Assembly: GCA_048213135.1 (NCBI GenBank) | Contig: PS015482.1 | Coordinates: forward strand, 10,560 to 46,975 | Reading direction: 5' to 3' | DNA: 36,416 bases | From: Reclinomonas americana ATCC 50394 | Lineage: Eukaryota | In this document: piece after piece, positions 6,901-35,411 of the stretch | How the letters are laid out: each line of letters begins with the position of its first letter | Numbering within the stretch: position 1 is the stretch's first letter | Made by a program: the position numbers and the translations under genes | The notes under the pieces: generated by a model | Databases searched by the model: none | The model's input: only the letters and a program-made list of their open reading frames with translations | What the model was told of the DNA's origin: nothing

Positions 6901-8056
6901 TCTCTCTCTTGTCTTTTGCGCTTCCATGGAAAGAGGGAACAACTCTGCAGTGTCGTTCTCCTTCCCCTTAAATTCCCTTCCCCATTTATTCCCCCCTTGC
7001 AGCCCGCCGCCTCACCTGGCTCACCACCCGCCGCCACCCCGCCCTCCGCCGCGTCGCTCTCCTGCAGCGCACCGGCGTACGCCACCTGCGCAACCACGAC
7101 GAGATTGTCGCCATGATCGCCCGCGAGTTCCCGCACTTTGAGGTGTCGGTGCTGCCGCCCGACACCACGCCCATGCACGGCATTTTCGAGTTCACCGCCG
7201 CCGACATCGTGCTGGGCCCGCATGGCGCCGGCTTTGTGTTTCGCGCGTTCGTGACCAGTCGCCCGTGTGCGCATGTGGAGATTGTGGCCGGACCGGAGGC
7301 GTCGTGGGATCCCACGCATGTGAGCATGGCGGCCATGAAGGTTTGTGTGGGGAAAAAGGAAGGGGAAAGGAGAACTAGAAGACGAAGGAGATAGAGGAAC
7401 AGGTGGAGAAAAACAGGAAGAGGAGGAGGAGGAGGAGAAAGAGGTCGTTCAGGAGGAAGAGAAAAATGAGGAGGAGAAATGGAAGAGAATGACGAAGATA
7501 ACCACAACCTCCTCCTCCTCCTCGTTCTCTTCCTCATGCTCCTTTCTTCTCGAATGAACTCGTCACCATGCAACTCTCCTCCACCTTGTCTTCTTTCTCG
7601 ACCTCGTCCTCCTCCTCTCTCTTTCTCGACCTCATCCTACTCTTCTTTGTCCTTCACTGCCCTCTCGTCGACTTCCTCCTCATCATTCCTCTCCTCTTCC
7701 TCCTCTTTCTCTTCTTGTGGGCCCCGTTCAGCAATTCATCACCACCACCACGAGGCGAAGAGCTGCACGTGCACGAGTGCTATCAGTAGGCGAAGAGTTG
7801 AACAAAGAGCGTGTCCAACAAGAAGAAGAAAGAGGGGCAGACGTTCGCGGATCATGCGGTCTCTCTCTCCCTCAATCTCCCTCATCCTTTCCCGAATAAC
7901 CAGGGATGCAAGACCTTTGTGTACGTGGACGCCAGTGCCACTCGCGACACATCGTTGCATGCACCACCCGCCAGTGTCGCCGCCATGCTGCGTCAGGCTG
8001 ATGAATATCTCGCCGGACTCGATTTGTGGAGTGCACGACTGGCGCGAGGAGCATGA
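3960..8056 (+). CDS. Glycosyltransferase family 61 (DUF563; EOGT/POMGNT2/plant xylan arabinosyltransferase clan), ~463-472 aa, N-terminal signal peptide or anchor
   Basis: Exons 3960-4310, 5364-5450, 5524-5736, 5803-5919, 5983-6115 (or -6142), 7003-7340 and 7904-8056 are all GT-AG and in frame. Hydrophobic N-terminus MRALVLLLLLLVLLSC. GT61-type motifs: EFFHIVADSLARL, LLQRTGVRHLRNHDEI, FTAADIVLGPHGAGF, AHVEI. Confidence 0.85.
4172..4237 (+). repeat. (TTC)n coding microsatellite giving a poly-Ser tract in GT61 exon 1
   Basis: Perfect trinucleotide run inside the open frame, between the signal peptide and the catalytic domain. Confidence 0.9.
4520..5150. repeat. Degenerate ~240-bp tandem repeat (about 2.5 copies) in GT61 intron 1
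   Basis: The block ttctgcaga(a/t)gg(a/g)ctgt...gagagaagcca..gcttgac.tctctcc.ttgtt.tttcgtcttctgtgctgct recurs at ~4530, ~4785 and ~5012. Confidence 0.75.
6358..6783. repeat. Intronic inverted repeat (6358-6475) followed by degenerate ~115-120-bp direct copies
   Basis: Left arm ccgctgttttcattctgttc[ttctgttc]acagagaatggga is the reverse complement of tcccattctctgtgaacagaatgaaaacagcgg (6443-6475). The right arm recurs at ~6555-6590, and gtcggtgagagaaa..caagagagctt occurs at ~6612 and ~6733. Confidence 0.8.
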
Positions 8057-8109: not shown

Positions 8110-10047
8110 TCATCTCCTCAGCCACGCACTGTCCTCCGCGTGACCATTCACACCCTCCGCGTCGTGCTCCTCACCACTGCCACCATTCATGGACATGCCC
8201 ACGCCCTCCGCCTCACTCCTGCCCTCGCCCTCGCCTGTCACATGTGCGGCGTACAAACTGTACGCCTCCTGGCTCAGCTGTTCGACCGTCGCCGCCGCCT
8301 GCGCGTGGTCGTACACGGCGCGCTCCAGACGCACCAAGGCCTGCCGCAGCGCAGATCAGTAACCTCGGACAGAGAGAAAGAGAGTGAGAGACGCTCACCT
8401 GTCGTGTCTTGACGTCCAGACCGGATGCCGACGAGGGCATGCGCACCAGCAAGATGCTAATGTAGGGCACCAGAGCGCAATACAAGGTGCTCCTGGTGCG
8501 CACAATGTACTCGAGAAAGCTGACGAGCGCTGGCATGTAGCGGAGGGGCGGGTTGAGGATGAGGGCCACCAGGTCGCCCTGTGAGAGAAAAGGGAAAGTG
8601 AGGAAGAGGAAAAGAGTGGGGAACAATGACAGAAGAGTTACAATCAAAGAATAATGGAAACGGGAAGGAGAACACAAGGAAAGAATGAGANNNNNNNNNN
8701 NNNNNNNNNNNNNNNNNNNNNNNNNNNNNNNNNNNNNNNNNNNNNNNNNNNNNNNNNNNNNNNNNNNNNNNNNNNNNNNNNNNNNNNNNNNNNNNNNNNN
8801 NNNNNNNNNNNNNNNNNNNNNNNNNNNNNNNNNNNNNNNNNNNNNNNNNNNNNNNNNNNNNNNNNNNNNNNNNNNNNNNNNNNNNNNNNNNNNNNNNNNN
8901 NNNNNNNNNNNNNNNNNNNNNNNNNNNNNNNNNNNNNNNNNNNNNNNNNNNNNNNNNNNNNNNNNNNNNNNNNNNNNNNNNNNNNNNNNNNNNNNNNNNN
9001 NNNNNNNNNNNNNNNNNNNNNNNNNNNNNNNNNNNNNNNNNNNNNNNNNNNNNNNNNNNNNNNNNNNNNNNNNNNNNNNNNNNNNNNNNNNNNNNNNNNN
9101 NGAGAGAGAGAGCAGAGTGGGAAACAAAGACAATGGGATCAACAACAGGAGGAAGAAAGAAGGCGGCACAGCTTTGTGTGTGAGAGAGGAGAGAGGAAAC
9201 AACGATGGACGGGGGTTCAATGACAAAAGAAAGAAGGAAGTGAGAGAGAGAAGCATGGCCCTCATTCTATCTGATTCCATCTTTCTTTGATTGCTGATCT
9301 TGCCGTTCTTTCTTTGTATCCCACTTAACTCCTCCTGTCTCACTTTGCCTCTCTCNNNNNNNNNNNNNNNNNNNNNNNNNNNNNNNNNNNNNNNNNNNNN
9401 NNNNNNNNNNNNNNNNNNNNNNNNNNNNNNNNNNNNNNNNNNNNNNNNNNNNNNNNNNNNNNNNNNNNNNNNNNNNNNNNNNNNNNNNNNNNNNNNNNNN
9501 NNNNNNNNNNNNNNNNNNNNNNNNNNNNNNNNNNNNNNNNNNNNNNNNNNNNNNNNNNNNNNNNNNNNNNNNNNNNNNNNNNNNNNNNNNNNNNNNNNNN
9601 NNNNNNNNNNNNNNNNNNNNNNNNNNNNNNNNNNNNNNNNNNNNNNNNNNNNNNNNNNNNNNNNNNNNNNNNNNNNNNNNNNNNNNNNNNNNNNNNNNNN
9701 NNNNNNNNNNNNNNNNNNNNNNNNNNNNNNNNNNNNNNNNNNNNNNNNNNNNNNNNNNNNNNNNNNNNNNNNNNNNNNNNNNNNNNNNNNNNNNNNNNNN
9801 NNNNNNNNNNNNNNNNNNNNNNNNNNNNNNNNNNNNNNNNNNNNNNNNNNNNNNNNNNNNNNNNNNNNNNNNNNNNNNNNNNNNNNNNNNNNNNNNNNNN
9901 NNNNNNNNNNNNNNNNNNNNNNNNNNNNNNNNNNNNNNNNNNNNNNNNNNNNNNNNNNNNNNNNNNNNNNNNNNNNNNNNNNNNNNNNNNNNNNNNNNNN
10001 NNNNNNNNNNNNNNNNNNNNNNNNNNGCGCTCTCTCTCTCTCTCTCG

Positions 10048-10078
<31 letters not shown>

Positions 10079-11437
10079 GAAAACACATTCGCTCTAGCCT
10101 ATTTATCTCGCTCTCACTTGCTTCGTCTATCTTGGTTAAGCTACCCTTCGCACCCATCCTTCCTCCTGTCCTCTCCCCCTTTCACTCACCCCTCTTCCTT
10201 CCCCCCTTCCCCCTTCTCCCCCTTCTCCCCTCTCCCTTCCCCCCTTCTTCCCCTTTCTCCCCCTTCTCCCCCTTCCCCCTTCTACACACCACCAACACCG
10301 CCAGCGCAGCCTGCAAATGCACATGCCCTCGCGCCACCACCAATCGCAAGGCCAACAGCGTCTCCTCAAAGATGCTCTCGTCCTTGACCAGACCGCGACC
10401 CACGATACTCAACAACCACGCCCACACCAGCGACACATTCGGTGTTGGCACCGGAGTGCTGGGAACCTGAGAAAGAGGGGAAGGATTGTCACGCAAGCTG
10501 AAAAAGGTGATGAGATCACACATACGCATCACGCACCAGTGCATGGAAGAGTCCGTGTCGCTGCTCGTCGGGCACAGTAGCCACCCGATCCGTATCACCA
10601 TTGAGCACCATGGCCAGTGGCACGACGACGCGTCGCAAGAGCTGCACGTAAAACGATAAGGCATGGACTTTAAATGAGCGATTCCAATCGGTGTCACGGA
10701 CCGATCGATACTCGGCTGACGGCATCGTCTTTACGGCCATCTCCGGCAGCAAGAGAGCATCGGAGACCTCCAAGAACCGAGCGAGCAAGCGGACAGCAGA
10801 AGGATGCGAGAACGTCGGCGTCGTCTCCTGTCTCCTATTCGTGAGAGAGACAAAAAGCCGCATGAATACAATCACACCCAAACTCACCGAGCGGACCAAT
10901 CGCAGCAGCGTCTCAACAGCTTGACTGGCACACACGACGGCGAGCTCAATCCACAGGAGCGGAATGCACAGCAGAGCATCGCAGACCAGCACGCAGTCCT
11001 CCCAGCCCGCATTCAAGTGCAGCCACTCGCACAGTGCCAGCACCAGCGGCATCACGGCGAGCGCATCGTTGCGATCGGTCGACTCCATCCACATGCGATG
11101 GCCGGTCACTGGAGCGCGACCGTCGGGCGCCGGCTGGAGTGCCGGTTGCGGGGCTGGTGGTGGTGGAGGCGACCATTGCAGGCAGAGGGCGTCACGGAAG
11201 AACTGCACCACGTATTACAATTACAGCAATGAATACAGACGACTGTGGATCGTTCACGAACCGCAACCATGGCCACAATCACTTCGTCGACAAGCTCGGC
11301 CTGCTGCCACTCACGACAGCGGTTGAGAAGCGACGGGATGAGCATCACCATTACTTCTGCGATGCTGCGTCGGGTGCGACCGCTGCGCAGAAAACATGCA
11401 TGGTGAGTTATTTCGTCACCGTCTCTCCCCATCGTCT

Positions 11438-11483
<46 letters not shown>

Positions 11484-12608
11484 GTCGTCGTCGTCGTCGT
11501 CTCGTCGTCGTCGTCGTCGTCGTCGTCGTGTCGTTCGTTCGTTCGTTCGTTCGTTCGTTCGTTCGTTCGTTCGTTCGTTCGTTACGTTCGTTCGTTCGTT
11601 CGTTCGTTCGTTCTCGTCGTNNNNNNNNNNNNNNNNNNNNNNNNNNNNNNNNNNNNNNNNNNNNNNNNNNNNNNNNNNNNNNNNNNNNNNNNNNNNNNNN
11701 NNNNNNNNNNNNNNNNNNNNNNNNNNNNNNNNNNNNNNNNNNNNNNNNNNNNNNNNNNNNNNNNNNNNNNNNNNNNNNNNNNNNNNNNNNNNNNNNNNNN
11801 NNNNNNNNNNNNNNNNNNNNNNNNNNNNNNNNNNNNNNNNNNNNNNNNNNNNNNNNNNNNNNNNNNNNNNNNNNNNNNNNNNNNNNNNNNNNNNNNNNNN
11901 NNNNNNNNNNNNNNNNNNNNNNNNNNNNNNNNNNNNNNNNNNNNNNNNNNNNNNNNNNNNNNNNNNNNNNNNNNNNNNNNNNNNNNNNNNNNNNNNNNNN
12001 NNNNNNNNNNNNNNNNNNNNNNNNNNNNNNNNNNNNNNNNNNNNNNNNNNNNNNNNNNNNNNNNNNNNNNNNNNNNNNNNNNNNNNNNNNNNNNNNNNNN
12101 NNNNNNNNNNNNNNNNNNNNNNNNNNNNNNNNNNNNNNNNNNNNNNNNNNNNNNNNNNNNNNNNNNNNNNNNNNNNNNNNNNNNNNNNNNNNNNNNNNNN
12201 NNNNNNNNNNNNNNNNNNNNNNNNNNNNNNNNNNNNNNNNNNNNNNNNNNNNNNNNNNNNNNNNNNNNNNNNNNNNNNNNNNNNNNNNNNNNNNNNNNNN
12301 NNNNNNNNNACGAAGTACGTTCTATACTTCTCTCTCTTCCTTCGTCGTGTACGGACCGAACGGACGGGACGTGTACGGTACGTACGCACGTCTCATCTTC
12401 TCGTTCGTCGTCCTCTCTCTCTCTCTCTCCTCCTCTCTCTCTCTCTCTTGGCGTGCTCTCATGAAGTCTCCTTTCAATCTTCATCTCTGTTTCTTCCTTC
12501 TCTTTAATCCAGTTTGTAACTTCCTTTCTCCCGCTATCCCGCTCGTCATCCCATTGTTTCCATCATTTCTCTCACTCTCTCTCTGTCTATCTCTCTCTGT
12601 CTATCTCT

Positions 12609-12649
<41 letters not shown>

Positions 12650-12668
12650 GTCTGTCTGTCTGCCTGCC

Positions 12669-12729
<61 letters not shown>

Positions 12730-13022
12730 GCTGTCTGACTGCCTGCATGTCTGTCTCTCTCTCTCCATGTCTGCCTGTCTCTCTCTATGTCTGTCTGTCT
12801 GTCTGTCTGTTTGTGTATCCCTCGCTCTCGCCTTTCTCCACTCTGTATGTGTACATGTCTGTCTGTCAGTCTGTCTGTCTCACTTGCTTTTCGTCTCTGT
12901 GAGTCTTTCTATCTCTGTCACTCTCTGTCTGTCTGTGTGCATGTATCTGTCACTCTCTGTTTGACAGTCTGTCTGTCTGTCTCACTCGGTTTCCTCGCTG
13001 TGCGTGTGTCATAATGGCTCTT

Positions 13023-13058
<36 letters not shown>

Positions 13059-14862
13059 CGTCAATCTATCACCCTCTCTCGCGGTCCCTCACTGTGCTTG
13101 TGTCGCACTGTCTCTGCTTCGTCCTTTCTTTCCTGTTCTCCTCTCCTCTTTCTCCTTTCCCCCCACGAACCACAGCGGGTACACGAGGGTGGCCAGGCGC
13201 AGAAGATGCAAATGGTGATGCACATACGTGGCAACTCCGGGCATACCCTCGAACAGGAGCTGAATCGCCTCTCCCATTCTGCACCCACACAAAAGTGAGC
13301 AACCAAGAAGCTTAAATGCGGAGAGCAACAACTCAACTGGTCACGATCCGCCACCGGCAACGACGGCAGCACATACAGCAGCAGACGACAGAGGGCATCC
13401 AGCACACGACCGCGGTCCGCATCGTCCTCGGTGGCGAGCACAACCAGGGCCACGGTGCGCACAATGATGCACCACGTGTCGATAGGAGTGGCATCACCTT
13501 GGAACACGGCCACAGTGAGCGGACACAGCAGCCACACGCGATCCGTGACAGGTCTGTGTTGGCGAGTGGGAGGTGAATATGAGGAAACAAGAGGATTTGA
13601 CTTTGGCACACTCACCGAGTCATCACGAGCCAGTGGTGTACAAACGACTCGGATGACACCGAGGCTGCCATGGCGCGCAGCACGCGCACGACACCGCTGC
13701 GGAGTGCGTCTGTGCCGGGGGCGACCATGTGCAGTTGTACCAGCGTGGGAAGCATCTGCGACGAAGGTAGGGTGAGCACTGCAACTCTATTTTGACATGT
13801 TCACCAGCCGGTACGAACGCTGCACACCTCACTATCTTTGCAGTCCACATACATGACACGAAAAAATGATTGCTTTCTCCACTCTGCAATCCAGACACTA
13901 TCCACATGGTCACCAGGCACCACAGCGTCTTGTCAAAAGATGACAACGCCGCCTCTCTCGCACATCACACACGCACTCTGCACTCTCTCCACACTCACGA
14001 TCGATAAGAACAATCATCCCTCCCATCACCACGCAACAATCTATCCGACAAGCAATCACTGTCCCTCTAATTCCTCACAGTCGATAAGCACAATCATTCC
14101 TCCATCGCAATTCAACAATCTATCCGACAAGCAATTACTTCCCTCTCATTCCTCTCTCACTCTCACAATCGACAATAACAATCATCCCTCCCATTACCAT
14201 GCAACAATCTATCCGTCACCGTCCTTCTCATTCCTCTCTCCACTCTCACAGTCGATAAGCACAATCATTCTTCCCATCACCACGCAACAATCTATCCGAA
14301 AAGCAATCACTGTCCCACTCATTCCTTGCCAGCACAAATCTCATTCTCCTCTCGTCTCCCTTCTTTCTTCATCTCGTTCCCCCCTCCTTACCTTCTGAAA
14401 CATGACGGGCAACTCCGCACTCGTTCCAACACATCGCACACACTCCACGAGGAACTCGACGGCAAAGTGCACCACCTGTTCGTCGTGACTGCAGCAACGC
14501 AGGGCGGCGACTGCAGTCGGCAGGCACTGCGCGACGAACTCGACGTCGGGTGACATGCGCTGCAGGCAGGTTCGACCACTGTGCGAGGGAGGTGGAGTGA
14601 GGGAGGGGAGAGGGAGAGGGCGAAGAGAGCAGGAGAGGGGGAGGGAAACGAAAGAATAGGATTGGGCAGTCGACAGTGAGCACGGTAACAACTGCGACAG
14701 CAAGATTGAGTTCATTGAAGACCGACTGAGTTTAGAGAAGGAGGAGACAAAGCAGAGCAAACGTGAGAAATGAAAGAGAAGAATGCAAAACTGAACTGCA
14801 CGTGTTTCAAAACAGTATCAGACTGAGCAAGCAGAAGGAGGAAGAAAGTAAGAGTGAGCGAG

Positions 14863-14925
<63 letters not shown>

Positions 14926-16698
14926 TCAGAATGGCCGAGAGACGAGAGTAGAAATCAAGACGATGAAGAAAATATCTGCTCGTACAGACTGTCTGCCACT
15001 TGAGAGAAGGAGATTCATCAAAAAAACACATATAAGAGAAAGCGAGCCCGAGAGAAATCTAGTTGATGCTGAAGAAGCTTGTGCTCGAAGTTCGACACTG
15101 ACTGAAACTGGGAGAGAACGAGAAAGGGAGGGAGGCAGAGAGACAAGTGCCGATAGTGATGAAGAAGACGTTTGTTGGAAGAGACTGTAAGAAACTGAAA
15201 TGGAAAAGAAGTGAGAGAAGAGAAGAGAAGAAAGAACAGAGAATATGAGAGACAGAGAAAGAAAGCAACACGAAAATATAGCAAACACAAGAGAATGAGT
15301 CACACAAAGATCAGCGCAATGAAACGAAGAGACGAGTGCCACTCTGTTACCCTTCTCATTTCGTCATTTCCTCGTCACAGCGGCACCGTATGCATAAGGT
15401 TGATCAAACCCCCTTCCCCCTTCCCCCCTTCCCCCTTTCCCTCTTCCTCCCTCCCTTCCCTCCCTCCCCTCCCTCCCCCCCCCCCCCCTCCGCAACAGCA
15501 ACAACCACGACGCCAACAACGACGACCGCGCGGACAACACCATCGGATTGGCCAGCACGACATGCGGCACGGCCAGCGCATCGCTCACAGACACAGGTGC
15601 AGCAGCCGTCGATGTGCCAGTTGCCGCCGCCGCCGCCGCCACGTCAACCAACTGCGACGTGGGAACCATCAGCAGCGTTCCACCACCCTCTGTCTCCAGC
15701 AACGGAGGCACGGCGCAGGCGTCGCGTTGCCGCACAGCCGGCTCCTGCTCGTTGGACAGCAGCGGACTCCAGTGCACTGCGTGATCGGCCAACGAGCCAA
15801 TGAGCACGCTGAGGGCGCGTGACGGCCGATACGACGTCGTGGCCACTTGCTCCACCAGTGCCGTGGCCAGTCGCGTCTGGCATATCTGCAGATCGACCAG
15901 GCGCAGCCACTCGTCGGCAGTGAGACAGCAATTCTCCACTTGCTCGAATGAGGCCAAGCTGAAGGCGGAGAGGACGGCCACACTCTCCACCTCCAGGAAC
16001 ACGCTCATGTCGTGCGTGTTCTGCGTGGACAGAAAGAGTCAGAGGCAACAGCCACGCCATTGAAGGGGACGGGATGAGTGGGCGGTACCGTCGGCAGCAT
16101 GGGGGCCAGCATGGTGAGGAGAGGAGCGGTGGCGAGCAACAATGTGCACAGTGGCGCAAAGCGCAGCGTCTTGTCAGCTTCCTTGATGGCTGCACGAAGG
16201 GAATATGAGGACGCTGACCGCAAGGAAGAGCAACTTTGCGTTCTCGCTCACCTGCATCGAGAGCACTCCACAGCACATCGAATAGCACCGTTGCTGCCTC
16301 TGTGGCACTACGACCGCCGCTTATGGGCAGCAGGCCACGTCTCACGAGGACAAACAGACGATACATGAGATGCTGTGAGTGAAGAGAACGAAGTTATTTG
16401 TCAAGCACTACACGGTACTCGGTGTTCGAAAAACCGCACCTGCGATGGCGGATCACTGGGCGACGAGCGCTCCAGCAGGCCGCGAAGAAAGAGTGCCAAA
16501 AAGCCGCACGGATCTGCTTCGGCACCTCGCGCAAGCAACAGGGCAGCCGGTGCCGACACTTGCACAAAGCTATCGAACGTGACGTCCACCAGCTGAACAA
16601 CAATAGAGTGAGACTCAAGTATACCACAGAGAAGAGATTTTAGTCCGTATAGCTAACAGATCTCACAACACGAATTCCAGACTGGGAATTCAGCGCCC

Positions 16699-16737
<39 letters not shown>

Positions 16738-17544
16738 CTACTACGTACTACGTACGTANNNNNNNNNNNNNNNNNNNNNNNNNNNNNNNNNNNNNNNNNN
16801 NNNNNNNNNNNNNNNNNNNNNNNNNNNNNNNNNNNNNNNNNNNNNNNNNNNNNNNNNNNNNNNNNNNNNNNNNNNNNNNNNNNNNNNNNNNNNNNNNNNN
16901 NNNNNNNNNNNNNNNNNNNNNNNNNNNNNNNNNNNNNNNNNNNNNNNNNNNNNNNNNNNNNNNNNNNNNNNNNNNNNNNNNNNNNNNNNNNNNNNNNNNN
17001 NNNNNNNNNNNNNNNNNNNNNNNNNNNNNNNNNNNNNNNNNNNNNNNNNNNNNNNNNNNNNNNNNNNNNNNNNNNNNNNNNNNNNNNNNNNNNNNNNNNN
17101 NNNNNNNNNNNNNNNNNNNNNNNNNNNNNNNNNNNNNNNNNNNNNNNNNNNNNNNNNNNNNNNNNNNNNNNNNNNNNNNNNNNNNNNNNNNNNNNNNNNN
17201 NNNNNNNNNNNNNNNNNNNNNNNNNNNNNNNNNNNNNNNNNNNNNNNNNNNNNNNNNNNNNNNNNNNNNNNNNNNNNNNNNNNNNNNNNNNNNNNNNNNN
17301 NNNNNNNNNNNNNNNNNNNNNNNNNNNNNNNNNNNNNNNNNNNNNNNNNNNNNNNNNNNNNNNNNNNNNNNNNNNNNNNNNNNNNNNNNNNNNNNNNNNN
17401 NNNNNNNNNNNNNNNNNNNNNNNNNNNNNNNNNNNNNNNNNNNNNNNNNNNNNNNNNNNNNNNNNNNNNNNNNNNNNNNNNNNNNNNNNNNNNNNTATAG
17501 CTAACAGATCTCACAACACGAATTCCAGACTGGAATTCACGCGC

Positions 17545-17584
<40 letters not shown>

Positions 17585-18740
17585 AAAAAACAATGGGCGG
17601 CAAGGACTTACCGCCGCTACCGCCTGCTGCATGACTGGAGGCCACGTCCATCGACATTGGAACTGGGCGGTCTTCTCCGCCACTGGTCCGGCATCCAAAC
17701 TGAGTGCACGATGATGAGTAAACAAAAGCCCTGCCAGGCGAAAAGAGAAGAAACACGACTTACAAGCTCGATCGATGTCGCATGCCAAGATCCGCCACCA
17801 GTGGCGAAGATCGATCAAGAGTACTGCACGAGCACGTCAGCCAACGAGATTCACGTGGGGCTCATCAGACGCTAACAAACCCAGAGTTGCGACGGAAGAG
17901 ACTGGTTTCGCTGTCAAACTGAGCAGTGGCCATGGACAAGCGATCCGTGCGTCCCGCCGTCAGCGATGCCACGAGTGGTGTCGAACTGGAACTCGCAGGT
18001 GCACCAGCGGACAGCAACACCGAGCTTGCATTCTCGGCGAGTCCGCCCACAGCCAGCGACACCACGAGTGGCGATGTGGGCGACGAAAAGTGTCGTTGCA
18101 GCGGGAACGAGGACTGGAGGGCGAGTGTTGACGGAGTCTCGGACGCACGTACGGATTGCCAGAGTATCGTGTGCAGAGCCAGAACGGCCGCAGCACGCTC
18201 ATGTGAGCTATTGTCACTATAGAGCTGGCTGAGCATGAGCTCGCGACTGGTCTCCGGCGCCTCGTGGCACATGCGCAGAAACATGCGACCCGCCTGCGTC
18301 ATGAGTGTCAGAAGGCGGCGATACCCAAGGACGCGGGCAGATCGCGCACGCACCACTATCCTCTCCGATTCGGAGCCAAACGCCATCAGCGGCCACGCAA
18401 TGGCGGCCATGCTGTTCATGTCGGCGGCATCCACACTCGGCGCGGACGGCAGTCGCAGTAGTGCACGAAACACCAGCTCCACCAGCGACCGATCGCGCAA
18501 CAATTCACGCTCCCGCGGCGGCAACATGTACCGTGGCAGCGATCCACCTCGCTGATTCAACTTGAACCACATGGACGAGGTCGACGACTCGTCGTACGTG
18601 TCGGCAGCGTACAGGGTGCGCAGCTGGGCGTGGCCAGCGTCGTTTGCAGACTGCTCCGCTTGCTGCGGGCGCCAGATAGAAGAAGTCAGACAGAGACACA
18701 AGTCGAGAGGCAGAAACGACCAGATAAAGGCAGTTTGGAG

Positions 18741-18800
<60 letters not shown>

Positions 18801-20564
18801 GNNNNNNNNNNNNNNNNNNNNNNNNNNNNNNNNNNNNNNNNNNNNNNNNNNNNNNNNNNNNNNNNNNNNNNNNNNNNNNNNNNNNNNNNNNNNNNNNNNN
18901 NNNNNNNNNNNNNNNNNNNNNNNNNNNNNNNNNNNNNNNNNNNNNNNNNNNNNNNNNNNNNNNNNNNNNNNNNNNNNNNNNNNNNNNNNNNNNNNNNNNN
19001 NNNNNNNNNNNNNNNNNNNNNNNNNNNNNNNNNNNNNNNNNNNNNNNNNNNNNNNNNNNNNNNNNNNNNNNNNNNNNNNNNNNNNNNNNNNNNNNNNNNN
19101 NNNNNNNNNNNNNNNNNNNNNNNNNNNNNNNNNNNNNNNNNNNNNNNNNNNNNNNNNNNNNNNNNNNNNNNNNNNNNNNNNNNNNNNNNNNNNNNNNNNN
19201 NNNNNNNNNNNNNNNNNNNNNNNNNNNNNNNNNNNNNNNNNNNNNNNNNNNNNNNNNNNNNNNNNNNNNNNNNNNNNNNNNNNNNNNNNNNNNNNNNNNN
19301 NNNNNNNNNNNNNNNNNNNNNNNNNNNNNNNNNNNNNNNNNNNNNNAGAGAGAGAGAGAGAGAGAAAGAGACGCAAATACAACGAAAAAGGAAGGTCGAT
19401 TGGTTAACGAGTATGACAGAGCTGGATGGAAGAGAGGAGAAGCAGCAGCGAACATCAGGAGTGAAAATGGAATGAATGGTGAGAAGGGGGTGACAAAGAG
19501 AGAAGACAAACCCCACTCTCGGCCAGCCAGTCCAACAGCATCGCATGCCACGCAGGCTCGGTGATGGGGAGTGGCGCGGCGGATGGGCCCACGTGGGCGA
19601 GCAAGCGCGCCACTGTGCTCTTGAGTGGCAGCGGCAGGCGAACGGAGTTGACATTCTACAAACAGCCATGAGAACAAACCCGTGATAGAAGCCTCGCTCC
19701 CGCCTTGCCATCATCACGCACCGCATCCAACAGAAAGTGTGAAATCGCATCGGCAAAGAGATCCGGGCTGGCCAAGTGAGCATACACGCAAAACTCGTAC
19801 AGCACCACGGCGCGACCGAGGGGCAGACTGGAGGCGCCGCGTCGCAACACATCGACCATGTAGCGCGCCGACAGCAACTCATGTGTATCACCGCACTCGG
19901 CAAACGCACGCAGCCGCCGCGCCACGACGCGCCCCGAGGCCATGTCGGAGGCGAACTCGGCCTCGAGAATCGACGGCACCACGTCGTGCGCCGCACACTC
20001 GAGAACGGTGCGCAGGAAGCGATGGCGCGAGGCGGCGGGTGATTGCGACCAGGCGACGTGGTCGAGGAGGGGGAGGGCCAGTCGGCCAGCCAGCAGCGTG
20101 CAGAGGGAGGGAATGGACAGTGTGCGGCAGAGGTGGGCGAGGTGGGTAGGGGTGAAGGTGGGGTGGGAGATCTGCAGAGGGGGTAAGAGGGGAAGGGAGG
20201 GTAAGAGGGGAAGGGATAAGAGGGGAAGGGATAAGAGGGGAAGGGATAAGAGGGAAAGGGATAGGAGAGGAAAGGATAGGAGGGGAAGGGATAAGAGGGG
20301 AAGGGGTAAGAGGGGAAGGGAGGGAGGGGGAAGGGAGAGAGGAGGAGAGGGAGAGGAAAGGATAGGGACGGGGAGGGCAACAGGGTTAGAGAGTAAGTGG
20401 AGAAGTGCGGAAAGAGGAACGGAGCGCGAAAGGCCAGGGAAGGGAAGGAAAAAGGGATGAAAGAGGGAAAAGGGAATAACTGGACCGGGAAGCAGAGGGA
20501 AGAGGATGGGAGCAGGGAAACCCGGACGAGAGGTAAGGGTGGCAGCACGCAATCGGGTGTGAAA

Positions 20565-20641
<77 letters not shown>

Positions 20642-23600
20642 TAGTAGTAGTAGTAGTATATAGTACTTACGTACGTACGTACGTACGTACGTACGTACTA
20701 CGTACTACTACGTACGTACGTACGTACGTACGTACGTACGTACGTACGTNNNNNNNNNNNNNNNNNNNNNNNNNNNNNNNNNNNNNNNNNNNNNNNNNNN
20801 NNNNNNNNNNNNNNNNNNNNNNNNNNNNNNNNNNNNNNNNNNNNNNNNNNNNNNNNNNNNNNNNNNNNNNNNNNNNNNNNNNNNNNNNNNNNNNNNNNNN
20901 NNNNNNNNNNNNNNNNNNNNNNNNNNNNNNNNNNNNNNNNNNNNNNNNNNNNNNNNNNNNNNNNNNNNNNNNNNNNNNNNNNNNNNNNNNNNNNNNNNNN
21001 NNNNNNNNNNNNNNNNNNNNNNNNNNNNNNNNNNNNNNNNNNNNNNNNNNNNNNNNNNNNNNNNNNNNNNNNNNNNNNNNNNNNNNNNNNNNNNNNNNNN
21101 NNNNNNNNNNNNNNNNNNNNNNNNNNNNNNNNNNNNNNNNNNNNNNNNNNNNNNNNNNNNNNNNNNNNNNNNNNNNNNNNNNNNNNNNNNNNNNNNNNNN
21201 NNNNNNNNNNNNNNNNNNNNNNNNNNNNNNNNNNNNNNNNNNNNNNNNNNNNNNNNNNNNNNNNNNNNNNNNNNNNNNNNNNNNNNNNNNNNNNNNNNNN
21301 NNNNNNNNNNNNNNNNNNNNNNNNNNNNNNNNNNNNNNNNNNNNNNNNNNNNNNNNNNNNNNNNNNNNNNNNNNNNNNNNNNNNNNNNNNNNNNNNNNNN
21401 NNNNNNNNNNNNNNNNNNNNNNNNNNNNNNNNNNNNNNNNNNNNNNNNNNNNNNNNNNNNNNNNNNNNNNNNNNNNNNNNNNNNNNNNNNNNNNNNNNNN
21501 NNNNNNNNNNNNNNNNNNNNNNNNNNNNNNNNNNNNNNNNNNNNNNNNNNNNNNNNNNNNNNNNNNNNNNNNNNNNNNNNNNNNNNNNNNNNNNNNNNNN
21601 NNNNNNNNNNNNNNNNNNNNNNNNNNNNNNNNNNNNNNNNNNNNNNNNNNNNNNNNNNNNNNNNNGAGAGAGAGAGAGAGAGAGAAAGAGAGCAGTTTAT
21701 CTGCAATAATTTGCATTCTGCACACGCTGTTCAACTCTCACAACCGCGTTATAGACTGAAGAAGCTTCTGGCGCGTGAAGGTGCAGTTCATGGATGGCAT
21801 CCCTCAACCTTCCATGCATAGCGAGTGCTTACACACGTGTATCGATAGATTGACCCACATCAACTGCACGAGAAGGCTGGCAGCAGTCGCTAACCGATCA
21901 CCCCGTTTCATGAATGAGATGGAGGAGTTGAGGACACACAATCAACACACTCGCACTCTCTTTCTTTTCCACAATCTCCAACCACACTCTCTCGTTTGCC
22001 CTCTTCTTTCCACTCCTCCGTCTCTTTCTTGTCGCCCTACGTGACTGACTGCTCAAGCTGCGCCTCCCTTCTACCTTCCCTTCCCCAAAACGCAACAATC
22101 GCCCGCAAGTGCGCCGCCAGCTCATTCGGACACACCACGCCAATGCCCTCCAGCAGCGAGGTGAAGCTCAACACCAGTGGCGTGTGATCGCCTGGCTGCG
22201 AGTCCCAGTGGCCCAATGCTTGCGCGAGGCACCAGAACACATCCGGCAGGACACCCTGCGCCGCGGCCGAGGAGGAGAGGTGGCGGGCCAGCACTTGGGC
22301 GAGGAGTAGTGATGTCTCGGCATCTTTCTCGCCAAATATGCCGCGCACTGCACGGGGGAAGGAAATGGGAAAGGGGATGGGAGAGAGATTAGAAGAGAGG
22401 AGTGAGCAATATTACGACAGGTAGGAAGAAGCGAGGAGACTGCGTTAGAGAGACAGAGAGAGAGAGAGAGAGAAGAGAGAAAGCAGAAGACAAAGTCGAG
22501 AGCATAGTGAGAATGACCTCTTTGGTGACGAAAAGTGCCGCTCTTACTCACCATTGCGATATCGCATCGAGACGGAGAGAGAGAAGGAGAGAGATATGAA
22601 GTGAGAAGTGTGCACTATTTCGAAAGGATACACAAGCATGAAGGAGTGAGACTGTTTTCGAGAGAGTACGGCGAAAGCAAAAGAGAGAAGAGAGAATGCA
22701 GAATACCAAAACTCATGCTTGCGAAATTGCCGAGAGCATGGTGAGGATGACCTCTCTGAAGACGAAAAATACCGCTCTTGCTCACCATTGCGATATCGGA
22801 TCGAGAGAAAGAGAGAGAGACGAGAAAGCAGGAAAGACAGAAGGCAACACGGGGACGGGTACGTATGCAGGCAAAGAGACCTAGAAATGCAAGCATGCAG
22901 ACGGAGAGATACTGAGAGACATAGAACGGGAATACGAGAAAACGATAGGCTAGAATCTGTAACCAGTCTTTGCTCTGACGATGAGACGCAACAAGTCGGA
23001 AGAAACGTGGCTGTCGGCAACGGCCACTCGGGGCCTCGCCACAGTCTATCCAGTGTCGCCATGCCCCACGTGCGCTCTCTCGTGCCCGGGTGCCGCAATA
23101 CTGCAAGCACGCACGCAGCGACATTGCTCTCCTGCGGAGAGTGTGTAAGACAGAAGTGACCTTCCGCGTCTGCGCCTCGCAAACGCAACGGTGACCATGC
23201 TGTCCACGAGACGCATGAGTTGCTGCCGCAAACCCGCATTGTCGGCGGCGGCCAGCGTGGCCGTCGTGGCGTCGACACTGCCGCCCACCGCTGGCGCCAG
23301 TTGATAGTAAGCGGTCATGAGCGGAGGCAGCAGGCGGTGTGCATGCTGCGACAAGACGGGTTGTGCCGCGGGCGACTTGGCCAGCAGGTCCAGCAGGCGC
23401 ACGCACTCGCCGGCGAGCCTCGACGAGTGACCGTGGATGACACGGCGGTTGACGCCGGCGAGGATGCCGCAGATGCAGCATTCCCAGAGGGGGAGAAGGA
23501 AGAACTGCGAGGAGGGGGAAGGGGGTGAGGGGGGGAAGAGAGGGAAGAGGGGAAGGGAGGCAAAAGAGGCAAGGGAGAGAAGGAAGAACTGCGAGGAGAA

Positions 23601-24221
23601 TGTGAAAGGGAACGAGGTGAGAAGGGTGCGAGATGTGAATGGAAGGCTTGAGATAGCGAGGCGAGCTTTGCAGAGCATGCGAATTAGCCAAGCAATGACG
23701 AGGAAGAGGAAGTGGATGCAGAGTGGGAGCAACGAATGCAGGAATGAGTAGATGGACTTCCGAGCGCGAACGGAGAACAACGTGAACGAGACAAGAGAAC
23801 GTACTGTGACAAACCGTGGCAAACAAATGAGACGTCTCCGCGGATGAGGGCGACGATTTGAGCTGAATAAGAGTCTCCAACAAGCTCTCCAGGGCCTCCT
23901 CCGCTGCGATTTCAAGCAAGTCAGTAGAAAGCAAACGCACTCTCTTCTAACTCGTCGAGAAATCAAGTTGTGCCAACTCTTCTCTGCCGTCAACACTCAT
24001 TGCCTCGTTGTCGCCTTTCAGCTGGTCACTTGTCCCTTCGTTGTTTCTCAGTCACCAGCACTCGCTGCTGCATGCTCTTGTAGAGGCTCTGCCGACTCTC
24101 TGCGCTTGGCTGTCTTCTATGCTGCAACTGGCTCGTCTTCCCAAGCCACGCGGCCTTCCTTCCTCCAAGATGACACCAAAAGCTCATGCTACAGGCAACT
24201 TGACTTGTCTCACTCCTCTCT

Positions 24222-24257
<36 letters not shown>

Positions 24258-25432
24258 CCTCTCTCTCTCTCAATTTCTCACTCTCTCTCTCAGTCTCTCT
24301 CCCACCTCTCCCTCTCTCTCTCTCATTCCTTCTCGCCTTGATCCACGCAAAGCCTCAGTCACTCAGCTTCTCGTCGCCCTTCTGCTTCATCATCTTCTTC
24401 TCCTCCTCCTTCATGACTCCTTTCCCTCGCTCTGACATGCACATTCTTGCCAGCCTGGATCCACTCAACGCCTCAGTCATTCAGCTTCTCCTCGCCCTCC
24501 TCTTCCCTTTCCCTCCTTTGCCTCCCAACTCACCCGCGCGCAACGACCGCTGCTGCTCGCTGCTTCCCAACGACAGAAGCGCCCACTGCAAGTCATACAG
24601 CAGCGCATGCAGCTCCACAGACCACGTGACAGCCGCGTGTTTCACCAGTTTGTGTTGAAGGAAGGCCACGCGATCTTCAAAGAACAGTGAGAGTGAGAGT
24701 GAGAGGAGAAGACTGAGGGAAGACAGATGGAAGACTGAGAGGAGACTGAGAGGAGAGGCTGAGAGGAGAGGCTGAGAGGAGAGGCTGAGAGGAGAGACTG
24801 AGAGGAGAGACTGAGAGGAGAGACTGAGAGAAGAAGACTGAGAGAAGACTGAGAGGAGCAGACTGAGGAGACTGAGAGGAGACAGAGGAGACTGAGAGGA
24901 GACAGAGAGGAGACTGAGAGGAGACTGAGAGGAGACTGAGAGGAGACTGAGAGGAGACTGTGAGGTGAGAGGAGACTGAGAGGAGACTGAGAGGAGAGAA
25001 AGGAGAAGTTGATGATGATGCAGAAGAAGAAGTGAGCAGAGAGANNNNNNNNNNNNNNNNNNNNNNNNNNNNNNNNNNNNAGAGAGAGAGAGAGAGAATG
25101 CGAGAGAGTTGGAGAGACAAGTCCCTCTCACAACGAGTCCCCCTCTCACAGAATTGTGCCTATGCTTGCTTACCTGGGAGTTTACTATCTGAGGCACCTC
25201 GCAGGCGACCGCGAGAGTGAGTGAGCGCGCGTTGCACACGACGTTGGCGCGAGGAATTGCCGCCAACTGCCTCTCTGAGACACACACACACACAAAGGAG
25301 AGCAAAGTGAGAGGCATGAGAGAGAGAGAGAGAGAGTCTCTCAGTGTCTGTCTCTCTCTCACCGAGCAGTTGCAGCTGTTCCATGAGAGGAGCCCATCTC
25401 TCAAATGCGTGAATTGCAATACGGGTTTTGTC
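8110..25432 (-). CDS. UNC80: UNC80-like large alpha-helical (HEAT/ARM-type) protein, homologue of the NALCN channel auxiliary subunit; many exons, interrupted by assembly gaps, start uncertain
   Basis: Colinear motif matches to animal UNC80, recalled from memory. N-terminal AFER (exon 25432-25363), LAAIPRANVV (25274-25174) and ELHALLYDLQWALL (~24610-24575; cf. ETKLLYTLHW). RRLRAFAECG...PLGRAVVLYEFCVYAH (~19925-19778; cf. RFQFLLNCCEPG...PVVARAALFLECARFVH). AGRMFLRMCHEAPETSRELMLSQLY...ERAAAVLALHTILW (~18295-18157). EADPCGFLALFL (~16520-16485; cf. EDPSTVLRHFL). C-terminal TLLALRLVV (~10360) and ALVSFLEYIVRTRSTLYCALVPYI (exon 8578-8399; cf. ALWDFLDFIVRTRIPIFVLLRPFI). Last exon 8340-8110 ends in TGA. 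Confidence 0.75.
12590..12985. repeat. (CT)n/(CTGT)n microsatellite tract in an UNC80-like intron
   Basis: Perfect and degenerate tctg runs seen directly. Confidence 0.9.
13999..14330. repeat. Four-copy ~81-88-bp intronic tandem repeat
   Basis: tcgataag.acaatcat.c.tcccatcacc.cgcaacaatctatccga.aagcaat begins at ~13999, ~14080, ~14168 and ~14251. Confidence 0.85.
20180..20320. repeat. 15-bp intronic minisatellite (ggataagaggggaag)n
   Basis: Tandem copies lie next to the acceptor of the exon starting at ~20171 and produce the spurious PFPSY ORF. Confidence 0.85.
22498..22822. repeat. ~90-bp direct repeat pair (~22498-22590 and ~22732-22822) in an UNC80-like intron
   Basis: gagagcat.gtgag.atgacctct.tg..gacgaaaa.t.ccgctctt.ctcaccattgcgatatcg.atcgaga occurs twice. 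Confidence 0.85.
24700..25000. repeat. 11-13-bp intronic minisatellite (gagaggagact)n
   Basis: Tandem array seen directly. Confidence 0.9.
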
Positions 25433-25570: not shown

Positions 25571-26201
25571 TTAGACGACCTCGTAGTAGAGAATGTTGCG
25601 CCAAAAGTTGCAGAAGCACATCATGTCGCGCAGCTTGACCTCCTCCGAGTTGGGGATGTCGCCGGTGCCGTACGGGCGGGGGGCGTTCAGGTAGCTGGGG
25701 GAGGGGAGAGAGGGGAAGGTGAGCGAAAGGAGTAGAGGGAGGGGGGACAGGGAGAGCAATGAGGAAGAGGGTGGGAGCTGAGAGAGATAAGGCGAGGAGT
25801 GGCAAGACACAGTTGAGAAAGAAGCATGTGGAGAGACTGTCGCATTCAACAATCAACCGTCAAACAAGCATCGGCGAGGTACAATGGAAGGAGTCCACAG
25901 AGACAGGCGAGATCGAGAGGCTGATGAACAGAGTGCATGGTGAAAGCAACTACCACGGCAGGCGTGGAGCGAGCAGAAAGAGGATCCTTGCAGATCACAG
26001 TTTCGCAAGCATCACACGAGATATGTGTGTGTGCGTGAGAGAGAGAGAAGCGTAAAAGGAAACGAGCATGCACCTCGTGCTTGCATGTCAACATTCGGAA
26101 CGCAGCACGAGCGAGTGAGATCGGAGAAAGGCAACCTCAAATAAAAGCGCACACAGCATGGCATCCTTGATCCAGAATGTCCACGGGCGGAGAGAGAGTG
26201 C

Positions 26202-26235
<34 letters not shown>

Positions 26236-28849
26236 ACCACAAAAGAGCCAGCACACAAGACGACACCCCATCCCCTTCCCCTAACCCCCCTTTCCCCTCT
26301 TTCCCTCTCTTTGCGCAACTGCGAGTGTGCGGTCAGCTTCAGCTTGAAGGCCGGCACTCCAGCCTTGGAGGCAATGGCGGCCACCACATCCTTGTAGGGG
26401 GCGTCCTCGGCCAGATCGAGCTCGATGGCCGATCCCTGCGGGGCCTTCAGCTTGTCGGCCGGGGTCTCCAGCTTGTACACCTCAAAGTGCACTGGTCCCT
26501 CGCCGACCTTGCGCTCGTAGCGGCGGTCAGTGGAGAACCACCTGCGGCGAACGGAGTGGTGAGTGCTCTGGAAGAGAAGAGTGTCTGGTGTCGAGCGCGC
26601 ACGCAACTCCACCATGCTGCTCATCTGCAGCTCCAGCTCCTCCACGCGCTTCAGCGCAGTCTGCAGGAACTCCCTGATCAGCGGGCCGAACCTGGTGATA
26701 TGGAGGAAGCAAGGGGTGAGCAAAGAAGTTGAGGATGGCGCGCGAGTGTGTGTGGCTGACTCAACTCGTCGACGGTGATGAAGCCCTGGTGCTTGAGGTC
26801 CAGGTCGGTGAACTTCTTCTGTTGGAGGGGAAACAAAGGTGTGAGCGAAGTGATTCTGGGACAAGAAAGCTGCAAGCGGAGACGCAACGTCGAGGGAGGC
26901 GTCGGTGGGGATGTCCTCCTTCGGCAGGTGCATGTGCGAGTAGAACTCGATGACCAGCTTGCCAAACTCCTCTGCAGAGGCGCAAAGGGTGATGAGTGCG
27001 AAGCAGGGGAGAAGAGGGTGGGAAGTGAGTGGCACGAAGAGCGCAGGAGGCGATGCAACATGAAGAAGGCGATGCAAAGCGCAGAGGGGGTGCGAAGTGA
27101 AGGCGAGGCAAGACGCAGCACGCGAGGCAAGACGCAGCACGCGAGGCAAGACGCAGCACGCGAGGCAAGACGCAGCACGCGAGGCAAGACGCAGCACGCG
27201 AGGCAAGACGCAGAAGGCGATGCGAGACGCAGAAGGCAATATAAGACGCAGAAAGCGATGCAAAACGCAGAAGGCGATGCAAAACGCAGAAGGCGATGCA
27301 AAACACAGAAGGTGATGCAAAACACAGAAGGCGATGCAAAACGCAGAAGGCGATGCAGAGCGCAAAACACAGAAGGCGATGCAAAACGCAGAAGGCGATG
27401 CAGAGCGCAAAAGGCGATGCAGAGCGCAAAAGGCGATGCAGAGCGCAAAAGGCGATGCAGAGCGCAAAAGGCGATGTAGAGCGCAAAAGGCGATGCAACA
27501 CGCAAAAGGCGATGCAACACGCAAAAGGCGATGCAAGACGCAGAAGACGATGCAACACGCAGAAGGCAAGGCAGAGTGCAGAAGGCGCTACAGAATGCAG
27601 AATGCGAATGCAGAAGGCGATTCACAAAGCAGAATGCGATGCAAAGCGCAGAAGGCGATGCAAAACGCAGAAGGCGATGCAAAACGCAGAAGGCGATGCA
27701 AAACGCAGAAGGCGATGCAAAACGCAGAAGGCGATGCAAAACGCAGAATGCAATGCAAAGTACAGACTGTGATGCAACGCAGAAGGCGATGCAAGACGCA
27801 CAATGCGATGAAATTGAAGGAGGCGAGCACAATGCAGAATATGACAATGCAGAAGGATGGAGAATGCGATGCAGAGCGCAGGATACAACAGAAGGCGATA
27901 CAAAGCGCAGAAGGCGATGCAAAGCGCAGAAGGCGATGCAAAGCGCAGAAGGCGATGCAAAGCGCAGAAGGCAATGCAAAAGGGCAGAAGGCAATGCAAA
28001 ACGCAGAATGCGATGCAAGACGTAGAAGGCAAGGGAGAGTGCAGAAGGCGCTACAGAATGCAGAATGCGATGGAAATTGAAGGAGGCGGTGCACAATGCA
28101 GAATATGACAATGCAGAAGGATGGAGAATGCAGAGCGCAGGATACAACAGAAGTCGATGCAAAGCGCAGAAGGTGATGCAGAACGCAGAAGATGATGTAA
28201 AACGCACAAGGCGATGCAAGACGCACAAGGCAATGCAAGACGCACAAGGCAATGCAAGACGCACAAGGCAATGTAACACGCAGAATGCAACGCGAGACGC
28301 AGAAGGCGATACACAGCGCAAAAGGCGATGCAGAATGCATCGCAGCGCGAGATACAGACACCAGAATGCATTCAACCCCCTTCCCCTTCTCCCCCTTCCC
28401 CTTCTCCCCCTTTCCCCCTTCCCCTTTTATCCCCGCTTACTCACCGCGATCAATCGACGAGCTTCCATCGACATCATTCGACGCAAAGAAGCGCTCCACC
28501 GTCGCCTTGAACTCCTGCGGAAAAAATGCAGGATTCCCCCCACAATCTCTCAGCAAAAAAATCAACACACACACACACGCACTCCCTTTCATGCACAACA
28601 CAAACCGACGAGTGCGTCAACACGCTGTGCAGCTTGTCCTTGAGACCGCCAAGTGCGCCAAAGTGCTGCACAAAGAGAGAGAAAAAACGACAAAAAGTGT
28701 GAGAAATGGCGTGCCTTTTTCCTTGCACTCGCGCGCACGCATTCACTCTCTCCGCGTGTGTATGCATGTGTGCATGTGTGTGAGAGAGAGACAGAGGACA
28801 CAGACACAAAATGAGCGTGCGGGCAACGCGTCAGGGCGCCGACCGACAT
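25571..28849 (-). CDS. Two-EF-hand calcium-binding protein with a C-terminal USP7/UBP12-type ubiquitin-like domain (~233 aa)
   Basis: Exons 28849-28844 (start tentative), 28665-28606, 28514-28445, 26971-26889, 26818-26766, 26691-26608, 26541-26320 and 25694-25571 total 702 nt in frame. EF loops are DVDGSSSIDREE (near-canonical) and DLKHQGFITVDE (degenerate). The C-terminus IELDLAEDAPYKDVVAAIASKAGVPAFKLKLTAHSHYLNAPRP...KLRDMMCFCNFWRNILYYEVV resembles, from memory, the USP7/UBP12 UBL ending LRLTSHNCY...LSDML...ILYYEVL. Confidence 0.8.
27045..28372. repeat. 19-bp minisatellite array (caaaacgcagaaggcgatg and variants) with higher-order duplications, filling an intron of the EF-hand gene
   Basis: The 19-bp period is clear at 27661-27740. 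The variant cgcgaggcaagacgcagca occurs at ~27102-27210. Larger blocks are duplicated (~27805-27900 vs ~28065-28160). Confidence 0.95.
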
Positions 28850-30289: not shown

Positions 30290-30938
30290 AGCGCAGTGCA
30301 ACGCCAGTGGCAACGTTAACGCCAGTGTGCAACGCAGTGTGCAACGCAGTGGCAACGCAGTGCAACGCAGTGCAACGCAGTGCAACGCAGTGCAACGCAG
30401 TGCAACGCAAGTGGCAACGCAAGTGGCAACGCAGTGTGCAACGCAAGTGGCAACGCAGTGTGCAACGCAAGTGGAAACGCAGTGTGCAACGCAAGTGGCA
30501 ACGCAGTGTGCAACGCAAGTGGCAACGAAGTGTGCAACGCAAGTGGAAACGCAGTGTGCAACGCAAGTGGAAACGCAGTGTGCAACGCAAGTGGCAACGA
30601 AGTNNNNNNNNNNNNNNNNNNNNNNNNNNNNNNNNNNNNNNNNNNNNNNNNNNNNNNNNNNNNNNNNNNNNNNNNNNNNNNNNNNNNNNNNNNNNNNNNN
30701 NNNNNNNNNNNNNNNNNNNNNNNNNNNNNNNNNNNNNNNNNNNNNNNNNNNNNNNNNNNNNNNNNNNNNNNNNNNNNNNNNNNNNNNNNNNNNNNNNNNN
30801 NNNNNNNNNNNNNNNNNNNNNNNNNNNNNNNNNNNNNNNNNNNNNNNNNNNNNNNNNNNNNNNNNNNNNNNNNNNNGCAGTGTGCAACGCAAGTGGAAAC
30901 GCAGTGTGCAACGCAAGTGGCAACCCAGTGTGCAACGC
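30290..30938. repeat. 10/12/24-bp minisatellite (tgcaacgcag; gcagtgtgcaacgcaagtggcaac) spanning a gap
   Basis: Tandem units on both sides of the N run. Confidence 0.9.
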
Positions 30939-32601: not shown

Positions 32602-32643
<42 letters not shown>

Positions 32644-35263: not shown

Positions 35264-35301
<38 letters not shown>

Positions 35302-35359
35302 GAGGAGGAGGAGGAGAGAGAGAGAGAGAGAGGAAGGAAGGAGGAAGGAAAGGAAAGGA

Positions 35360-35411
<52 letters not shown>

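Follow-up and report, generated by a model that had tools for sequence, protein, structure and literature searches.

A large minus-strand gene between two motif exons

The window analyzed here is a stretch of 36,416 bases from a draft eukaryotic scaffold (non-N GC ∼55%, from base counts; 12 runs of N, 4,728 N in total). Its minus strand holds what looks like one large multi-exon gene for a helical scaffold protein, to which exons can be assigned with a Viterbi model between 8110 and 24674. The gene had been taken for a homolog of UNC80, which is a giant (about 3,000 amino acids [aa]) armadillo/HEAT solenoid. Its most likely identity would be that of a highly diverged UNC80 family member, the host being a non-animal eukaryote without sequenced close relatives, and judged from the sequence we give this reading about an even chance.

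The preliminary description of this DNA had placed at least six motif blocks of animal UNC80 on the stretch 8110–25432. The two blocks that it quoted, LLYDLQW and FLEYIVRTR, occur once each, at 24583–24603 and 8492–8518, respectively, on the same strand and at opposite ends of the exon chain; the other four were not named and can, thus, not be checked. As both motifs are encoded on the minus strand, the gene runs from high to low coordinates, with LLYDLQW in an early exon and FLEYIVRTR in the penultimate one, and a GT-AG exon chain with raised GC extends between them. Regarding the limits of the stretch, position 8110 is the last base of the TGA codon closing the final exon, but 25432 only opens a stop-to-stop frame. 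The first credible ATG codons, as read directly from the DNA, lie near 25387–25370. The gene may reach this far, but its start is uncertain, as are its first two or three exons.

Exons were predicted with a small GT-AG Viterbi exon chainer using self-trained codon log-odds and no outside training; it is crude, the exon edges are provisional, and the minimum intron length was set at 60 nucleotides (nt). The resulting model comprises 27 exons on the minus strand, from 24674 down to 8110 (5,322 nt, ∼1,774 codons), with a GC content of 0.63 (0.74 at third codon positions) versus 0.50 outside the exons. The 21 introns free of assembly gaps measure between 60 and 937 nt (median 73), and the reading frames are consistent across all of them. 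The last intron is really 58 nt long, as direct reading of the sequence revealed, which is under the floor set for the chainer. Introns fall into two size classes, short ones of ∼58–75 nt (e.g., 8341–8398, 10459–10519, 13554–13615, and 16190–16251) and long, microsatellite-filled ones of 300–940 nt. The intron style had been read as pointing to a choanoflagellate-like organism; as far as can be told, this pattern (GT-AG borders, a short and a long class) is not diagnostic of any lineage.

The predicted product contains 15.6% leucine, 12.8% alanine, 9.1% valine, and only 0.7% lysine. Its size (∼1,774 visible codons) and its leucine and alanine content are consistent with a giant solenoid. The composition is extreme (Leu, Ala, and Val together make up 37.5%, and Lys 0.7%, of ∼1,760 predicted residues), which may partly reflect the self-trained codon model.

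At the 5′ end of the chain, the exon with LLYDLQW (24534–24674) is bordered by an AG acceptor and the donor GTGAGT, and it had no match in Pfam or the PDB. It is followed by predicted exons at 23815–23903 (with weak, unrelated Pfam matches only, on an overlapping tile), 23196–23504 (without Pfam match), 22993–23131, and 22075–22347 (again without Pfam match), by a short one of low confidence (21833–21889), and by a doubtful one of 14 nt adjoining a gap (21742–21755). Farther downstream lie an exon of 150 codons (19722–20171; no Pfam match and only spurious RecA-fusion matches in the PDB), one at 19517–19655, and the largest (17920–18662; 247 codons), which matched nothing in Pfam, the PDB, or the databases searched and the second half of which is rich in Ser/Ala/Thr and probably disordered. 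Two exons of low confidence, a short one at 17764–17823 and one at 17612–17699, precede those at 16440–16592, 16252–16372 (donor GTGAGC), 16089–16189, and 15497–16020 (174 codons; neither a Pfam match nor an UNC80 match in the PDB). A Cys/Ser-rich reading (14421–14559) and an exon of 30 nt (13899–13928) are both doubtful. Next come an exon with a weak Pfam match to DOP1_C (13616–13755) and three others at 13345–13553, 13171–13270, and 11268–11382. Exons 10888–11202 and 10520–10827 belong to the same open frame (10519–11214, a piece of 232 aa); the 60-nt “intron” that separates them is in frame and may be coding. The chain closes with an exon at 10290–10458, the penultimate exon with FLEYIVRTR (8399–8578; acceptor CAG/GGC and donor CAG/GTGAGC read directly, model edge at 8414) and, after the 58-nt intron, the last exon (8110–8340; TGA stop at 8112–8110, from the model and direct reading; no Pfam match).

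Seven of the N-runs lie within the 17-kb stretch (8691–9101, 9356–10026, 11621–12309, 16759–17495, 18802–19346, 20750–21665, and 25045–25080). As they cover 4,005 of its 17,323 bases (23%), exons are certainly missing from the model and may be concealed by the gaps within the gene. Microsatellites are numerous across the window, and several of them abut assembly gaps. Most N-runs are flanked by di-/tetranucleotide or 24-bp tandem repeats (examples of such gap edges are 10030–10064, 11526–11613, 18744–18799, 20663–20749, 30318–30603, 32602–32640, and 35266–35411); evidently, the assembly broke at simple repeats. Besides the bases hidden in gaps, the tiny or doubtful nature of several predicted exons and the long microsatellite-filled stretches separating exon groups would suit the possibility that these 17 kb hold two or more genes, or a decayed one, stitched together across the gaps. 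We consider this improbable, because all coding-like segments of the span are on the minus strand and uniform in composition, no family was matched on the plus strand inside the span, and the frames agree across the 21 gap-free introns.

Resemblance of the penultimate exon to the UNC80 C-terminal profile

The relation to UNC80 was assessed with Pfam on unaltered stretches of the window, that is, exon by exon and not on a spliced protein. The HMMER filters drop matches above about E=0.1–0.25, and faint colinear matches are, thus, invisible. One UNC80 model was returned, UNC80_C (PF20262; 1079 positions, curated cut-off 22.1 bits). It matched one of the 115 minus-strand stop-to-stop pieces of at least 35 aa (8216–8689; E=0.062, 11.5 bits), one of the 195 minus-strand tiles of 70 aa (8375–8584; E=0.013, 13.8 bits; 69 of the 264 tiles were of low complexity and left out), and one of the 25 predicted exons scanned (E=0.012, 13.8 bits; six of the 31 predicted exons were under 20 aa and left out). 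In each case, the same 34–35 residues were aligned, without a gap, to profile positions 1002–1036. Within the protein, the match falls ∼90 codons short of the stop, in the penultimate exon, which agrees with its position near the end of the profile. It recurred in all three queries containing the whole FLEYIVRTR exon and in no other query from the minus strand. Among the 25 exons it was the best match to any Pfam family, the only others being Acetyltransf_9 (E=0.14) and DOP1_C (E=0.17). No UNC80 model was matched by any of the 150 plus-strand control tiles (183 prepared, 33 left out) or the 51 flank segments.

What such a match is worth depends on how it is regarded. Taken blind, it is worth nothing: it is at noise level, and ∼0.3 matches of this size are expected among 25 exons. 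Considered as a test of one family named beforehand, the match is unlikely to arise by chance. The chance per model is ∼5e-7 (0.012/24736, our own arithmetic), and allowing for 335 queries, which overlap, and for a few UNC80 models, it comes to roughly 1e-3 or less; the number of UNC80 models in Pfam besides PF20262, the only one returned by the scans, is assumed. The agreement in position helps further, beyond this estimate.

The main competitor is an unrelated, lineage-specific α-solenoid scaffold, for instance a HEAT/ARM protein of trafficking or nuclear transport, in which both motifs would have arisen by chance from Leu-rich amphipathic helices. We give it a little under an even chance. 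A chance match to precisely the family named beforehand, at the concordant C-terminal position, is what speaks against such a protein, being improbable at 1e-3 or less before position is counted; likewise, UNC80_C was absent from all 150 control tiles, and no other family exceeded it among the predicted exons. On the other hand, the compositions of helical repeat proteins converge, and no match in the Pfam scans of minus-strand pieces, tiles, and predicted exons reached a curated threshold.

Several observations favor this competitor or otherwise weigh against UNC80. The best score for UNC80_C, 13.8 bits, is below the cut-off. Unrelated families scored just as well in the same minus-strand scans; noise matches of equal size among the tiles were those to Ubiq-Cytc-red_N (E=0.0041), Atrophin-1 (0.0053), DUF3915 (0.0082), TMEM251 (0.016), DUF7471 (0.018), and EAD11 (0.021). 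Neither the LLYDLQW exon nor any other exon except the penultimate one matched an UNC80 model in the 115 pieces, 195 tiles, and 25 exons, and neither did the ∼230 contiguous codons at 10519–11214, which are expected to lie inside the UNC80_C region. Of eight gene pieces, among them the two exons with the exact motifs, none yielded a PDB match to an UNC80 chain at E≤10; that the copy searched contains such chains is assumed from the cryo-EM papers. In a word-index search (E≤10), the FLEYIVRTR exon had no scoring words in common with any protein of 278–2000 aa; candidates in the “longer” class of this index have at most 2000 aa, and full-length UNC80 proteins were, thus, never among them. The protein language model associated the same exon with the helices of Utp15_C, Utp12, and Utp21, not with UNC80. 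That one gene continues across seven gaps is an assumption of the exon model. Finally, the UNC80 hypothesis and the Pfam match rest on the same residues; therefore, the resemblance was confirmed but not independently replicated.

A long open piece, the 232 aa encoded at 10519–11214, was examined by other means. An HMMER search of 1.84 billion (1.84e9) representative proteins retrieved no relative of it at E≤0.001. AlphaFold2, run without an alignment, predicted helices only, with low confidence (predicted local distance difference test, 46.3), and the 24 matches of this model in the PDB obtained with Foldseek were all at E≥2.4, with none at E≤0.001, which is uninformative. Its language-model look-alikes (such as LINES_N, TPR_DOP1, Tra1_central, XPO4, HEATR5A, and BIG2_C) are all large eukaryotic solenoids. 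They span many families, only one of the 10 best shared the family of the top match, and recognition was low (1156); this spread, and the lack of matches in the PDB, the representative library, and the word index, would again suit an unrelated solenoid. Such look-alikes are leads only, and none of them was UNC80. Word-index searches with the pieces 17868–18800 (“longer” class) and 17868–18665 (“near” class) returned nothing. PDB matches of exon 19722–20171 to RecA were rejected as an artefact, produced by 2.8-bit matches summed over tandem-fused chains.

TPR_DOP1 and DOP1_C clusters (similarity 0.90 and 0.88) among the look-alikes of the 232-aa piece, together with the Pfam match of DOP1_C to exon 13616–13755 (E=0.15–0.17, 11.3–11.5 bits, profile positions ∼264–304 of 431), bear on the DOP1 (Dopey) family, which the preliminary description had named as an alternative. 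This identity is very improbable. The DOP1_C match is weaker than that of UNC80_C and, at ∼11.4 bits, far under its cut-off of 27.3 bits; the Dopey N-terminal domain was not found in any Pfam scan of the 5′ exons; and the look-alike matches were flagged as probably belonging to the wrong family. Moreover, the TPR_DOP1-like piece is downstream of the DOP1_C-like exon, which would be the wrong order for DOP1.

Weighing these results, the claim of an UNC80 homolog holds in part. There is a large helical gene, and its C-terminal block resembles the end of UNC80_C; the resemblance is below threshold, and no UNC80-named family for the N-terminal or central regions was matched in the three minus-strand scans (pieces, tiles, and predicted exons). 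The lack of a significant UNC80 profile match had been put forward beforehand as grounds for abandoning the claim, and with 13.8 versus 22.1 bits, in a test handicapped by its confinement to single exons of a locus with 23% N, the claim does not yet pass. The LLYDLQW block found no profile support as an UNC80 motif in any scan.

Flanking genes and repeats

Upstream of the large gene, direct reading of the DNA revealed a minus-strand segment (25571–25694) that begins at a good acceptor, is strongly biased in its codons, and ends in a stop of its own. A separate gene probably ends with this exon, which had no match in Pfam or the PDB. The minus-strand segment 26313–26687 carries the signal of a ubiquitin-like fold in Pfam (OTU1_UBXL, E=5.3e-4; USP7_ICP0_bdg, E=0.0075) and is probably part of the same upstream gene. 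A short block of it recurs in the minus-strand segment 2634–3152 (pairwise E=0.003, with 10 identical residues out of 19), where another minus-strand gene, at ∼2.2–3.2 kb, has a coding-like frame. This block could be a small paralogous domain or due to chance.

On the other side, a plus-strand gene encodes a glycosyltransferase family 61 (GT61) domain at 7002–7337 (E=3e-8, 34.4 bits, above the cut-off). The GT61 gene probably starts from about 5524 and converges tail-to-tail on the 3′ end of the large gene. At 27042–28332, there is a 19-bp minisatellite (consensus CGCAGAAGGCGATGCAAAA; ∼69 copies, 78% matching), as a result of which several reading frames stay open over hundreds of codons on either strand, without any family match. 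Neither ion-channel nor UNC79 families were found in the 36-kb window by Pfam scans of its pieces and of the flank segments, and an Rfam scan and a tRNA scan of the window detected no Rfam family and no tRNA.

Possible identity and proposed role of the gene product

A single faint, correctly placed resemblance to UNC80_C is insufficient to prove UNC80 identity. Like animal UNC80, the predicted product would be a very large helical-repeat protein, and ∼34 C-terminal residues align ungapped to UNC80_C at a matching distance from the end; the N-terminal Leu/Trp motif presumably fits the animal pattern as well. It differs from animal UNC80 in the score of this match, in the lack of any N-terminal or central profile match, and in that the eight gene pieces matched neither the human nor the mouse chains of solved structure. 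From an animal gene, strong matches to the animal-built UNC80 models would be anticipated in exon after exon. As these models barely match here, the source genome is probably non-animal. The host also appears to be unannotated and poorly sampled, because a very large library yielded no relative of the 232-aa exon, and the neighboring genes gave only the GT61 domain and the ubiquitin-like fold.

Giant α-solenoids of other families (DOP1, Tra1/TRRAP, HEATR5, BIG2, and the exportins) are likewise all-helical and Leu-rich, and language-model similarity to them was 0.88–0.93, to which the weak DOP1_C match may be added. They differ in that no family-defining domain of theirs was found, and each match was weaker, or no better placed, than that of UNC80_C.

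Among non-animal UNC80 proteins, a faint signal has precedent. A recent survey (Senatore et al, 2025; PMC12412391) reports 139 UNC80 homologs, with those outside animals in Agaricomycotina, Mucoromycota, Rotosphaerida, Apusomonadida, Malawimonadida, and CRuMs, as well as Discoba. They are described there as highly divergent armadillo-type giants, only ∼22% identical to human UNC80 and found only with sensitive or custom hidden Markov models; therefore, a faint exon-level signal is possible for a true homolog. The same survey cites biochemical evidence for a Cch1–Mid1–UNC79–UNC80 complex in Cryptococcus (Boucher et al, 2024). Set beside these proteins by description only, the gene of the window is similar in its high divergence and probable non-animal host. 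It differs in that, although such proteomes should be represented in the library searched, nothing related to its 232-aa exon turned up there at E≤0.001, and therefore either its lineage is not close to the published holders of UNC80 or the gene evolves fast.

In the preferred reading, the locus is one long minus-strand gene of ∼27 or more exons, with at least 1,774 codons visible and more probably hidden in the seven gaps. The product would be a Leu/Ala-rich, all-helical solenoid (ARM/HEAT-like) serving as a cytoplasmic scaffold. If it is a divergent UNC80, we infer, by analogy to the known complexes, that this giant helical-repeat protein might pair head-to-tail with an UNC79-like partner and dock on the cytoplasmic face of a four-domain cation channel of the NALCN/Cch1 type, and that docking might control the activity or the placement of the channel.

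The preliminary description had gone further and envisaged UNC80 in a lineage devoid of NALCN. Its supposition that NALCN is missing from choanoflagellates fits PMC12412391, where all NALCN/Cch1 subunits are said to have apparently disappeared from the lineages that separate animals from fungi, a single channel of Tunicaraptor excepted. No report of a choanoflagellate UNC80 was found in the searched papers naming both UNC80 and choanoflagellate (the spelling “UNC-80” not being covered). It is unlikely that the gene is a genuine UNC80 orthologue from a lineage presumed to have lost the NALCN/Cch1 channelosome (for example, a choanoflagellate-like unicellular holozoan) or from an unsampled deep lineage. 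Were it an orthologue from a lineage without the channelosome, UNC80 would function there independently of NALCN or work with another four-domain channel, and the published wholesale loss between fungi and animals would be contradicted.

That UNC80 predates neurons, the main conclusion proposed there, is already in print for fungi, apusomonads, and others (PMC12412391), and the evidence from this locus is too thin to add to it. If the identity as a divergent UNC80 holds, one more non-animal lineage would join the holders of UNC80, a list that runs from fungi to Discoba. Such an addition would aid in dating the channelosome and in recognizing the truly conserved blocks of a fast-evolving scaffold, which in this case would be a C-terminal helix pair. 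The find would gain in importance with a host among the unicellular relatives of animals, from which all subunits are currently presumed lost.

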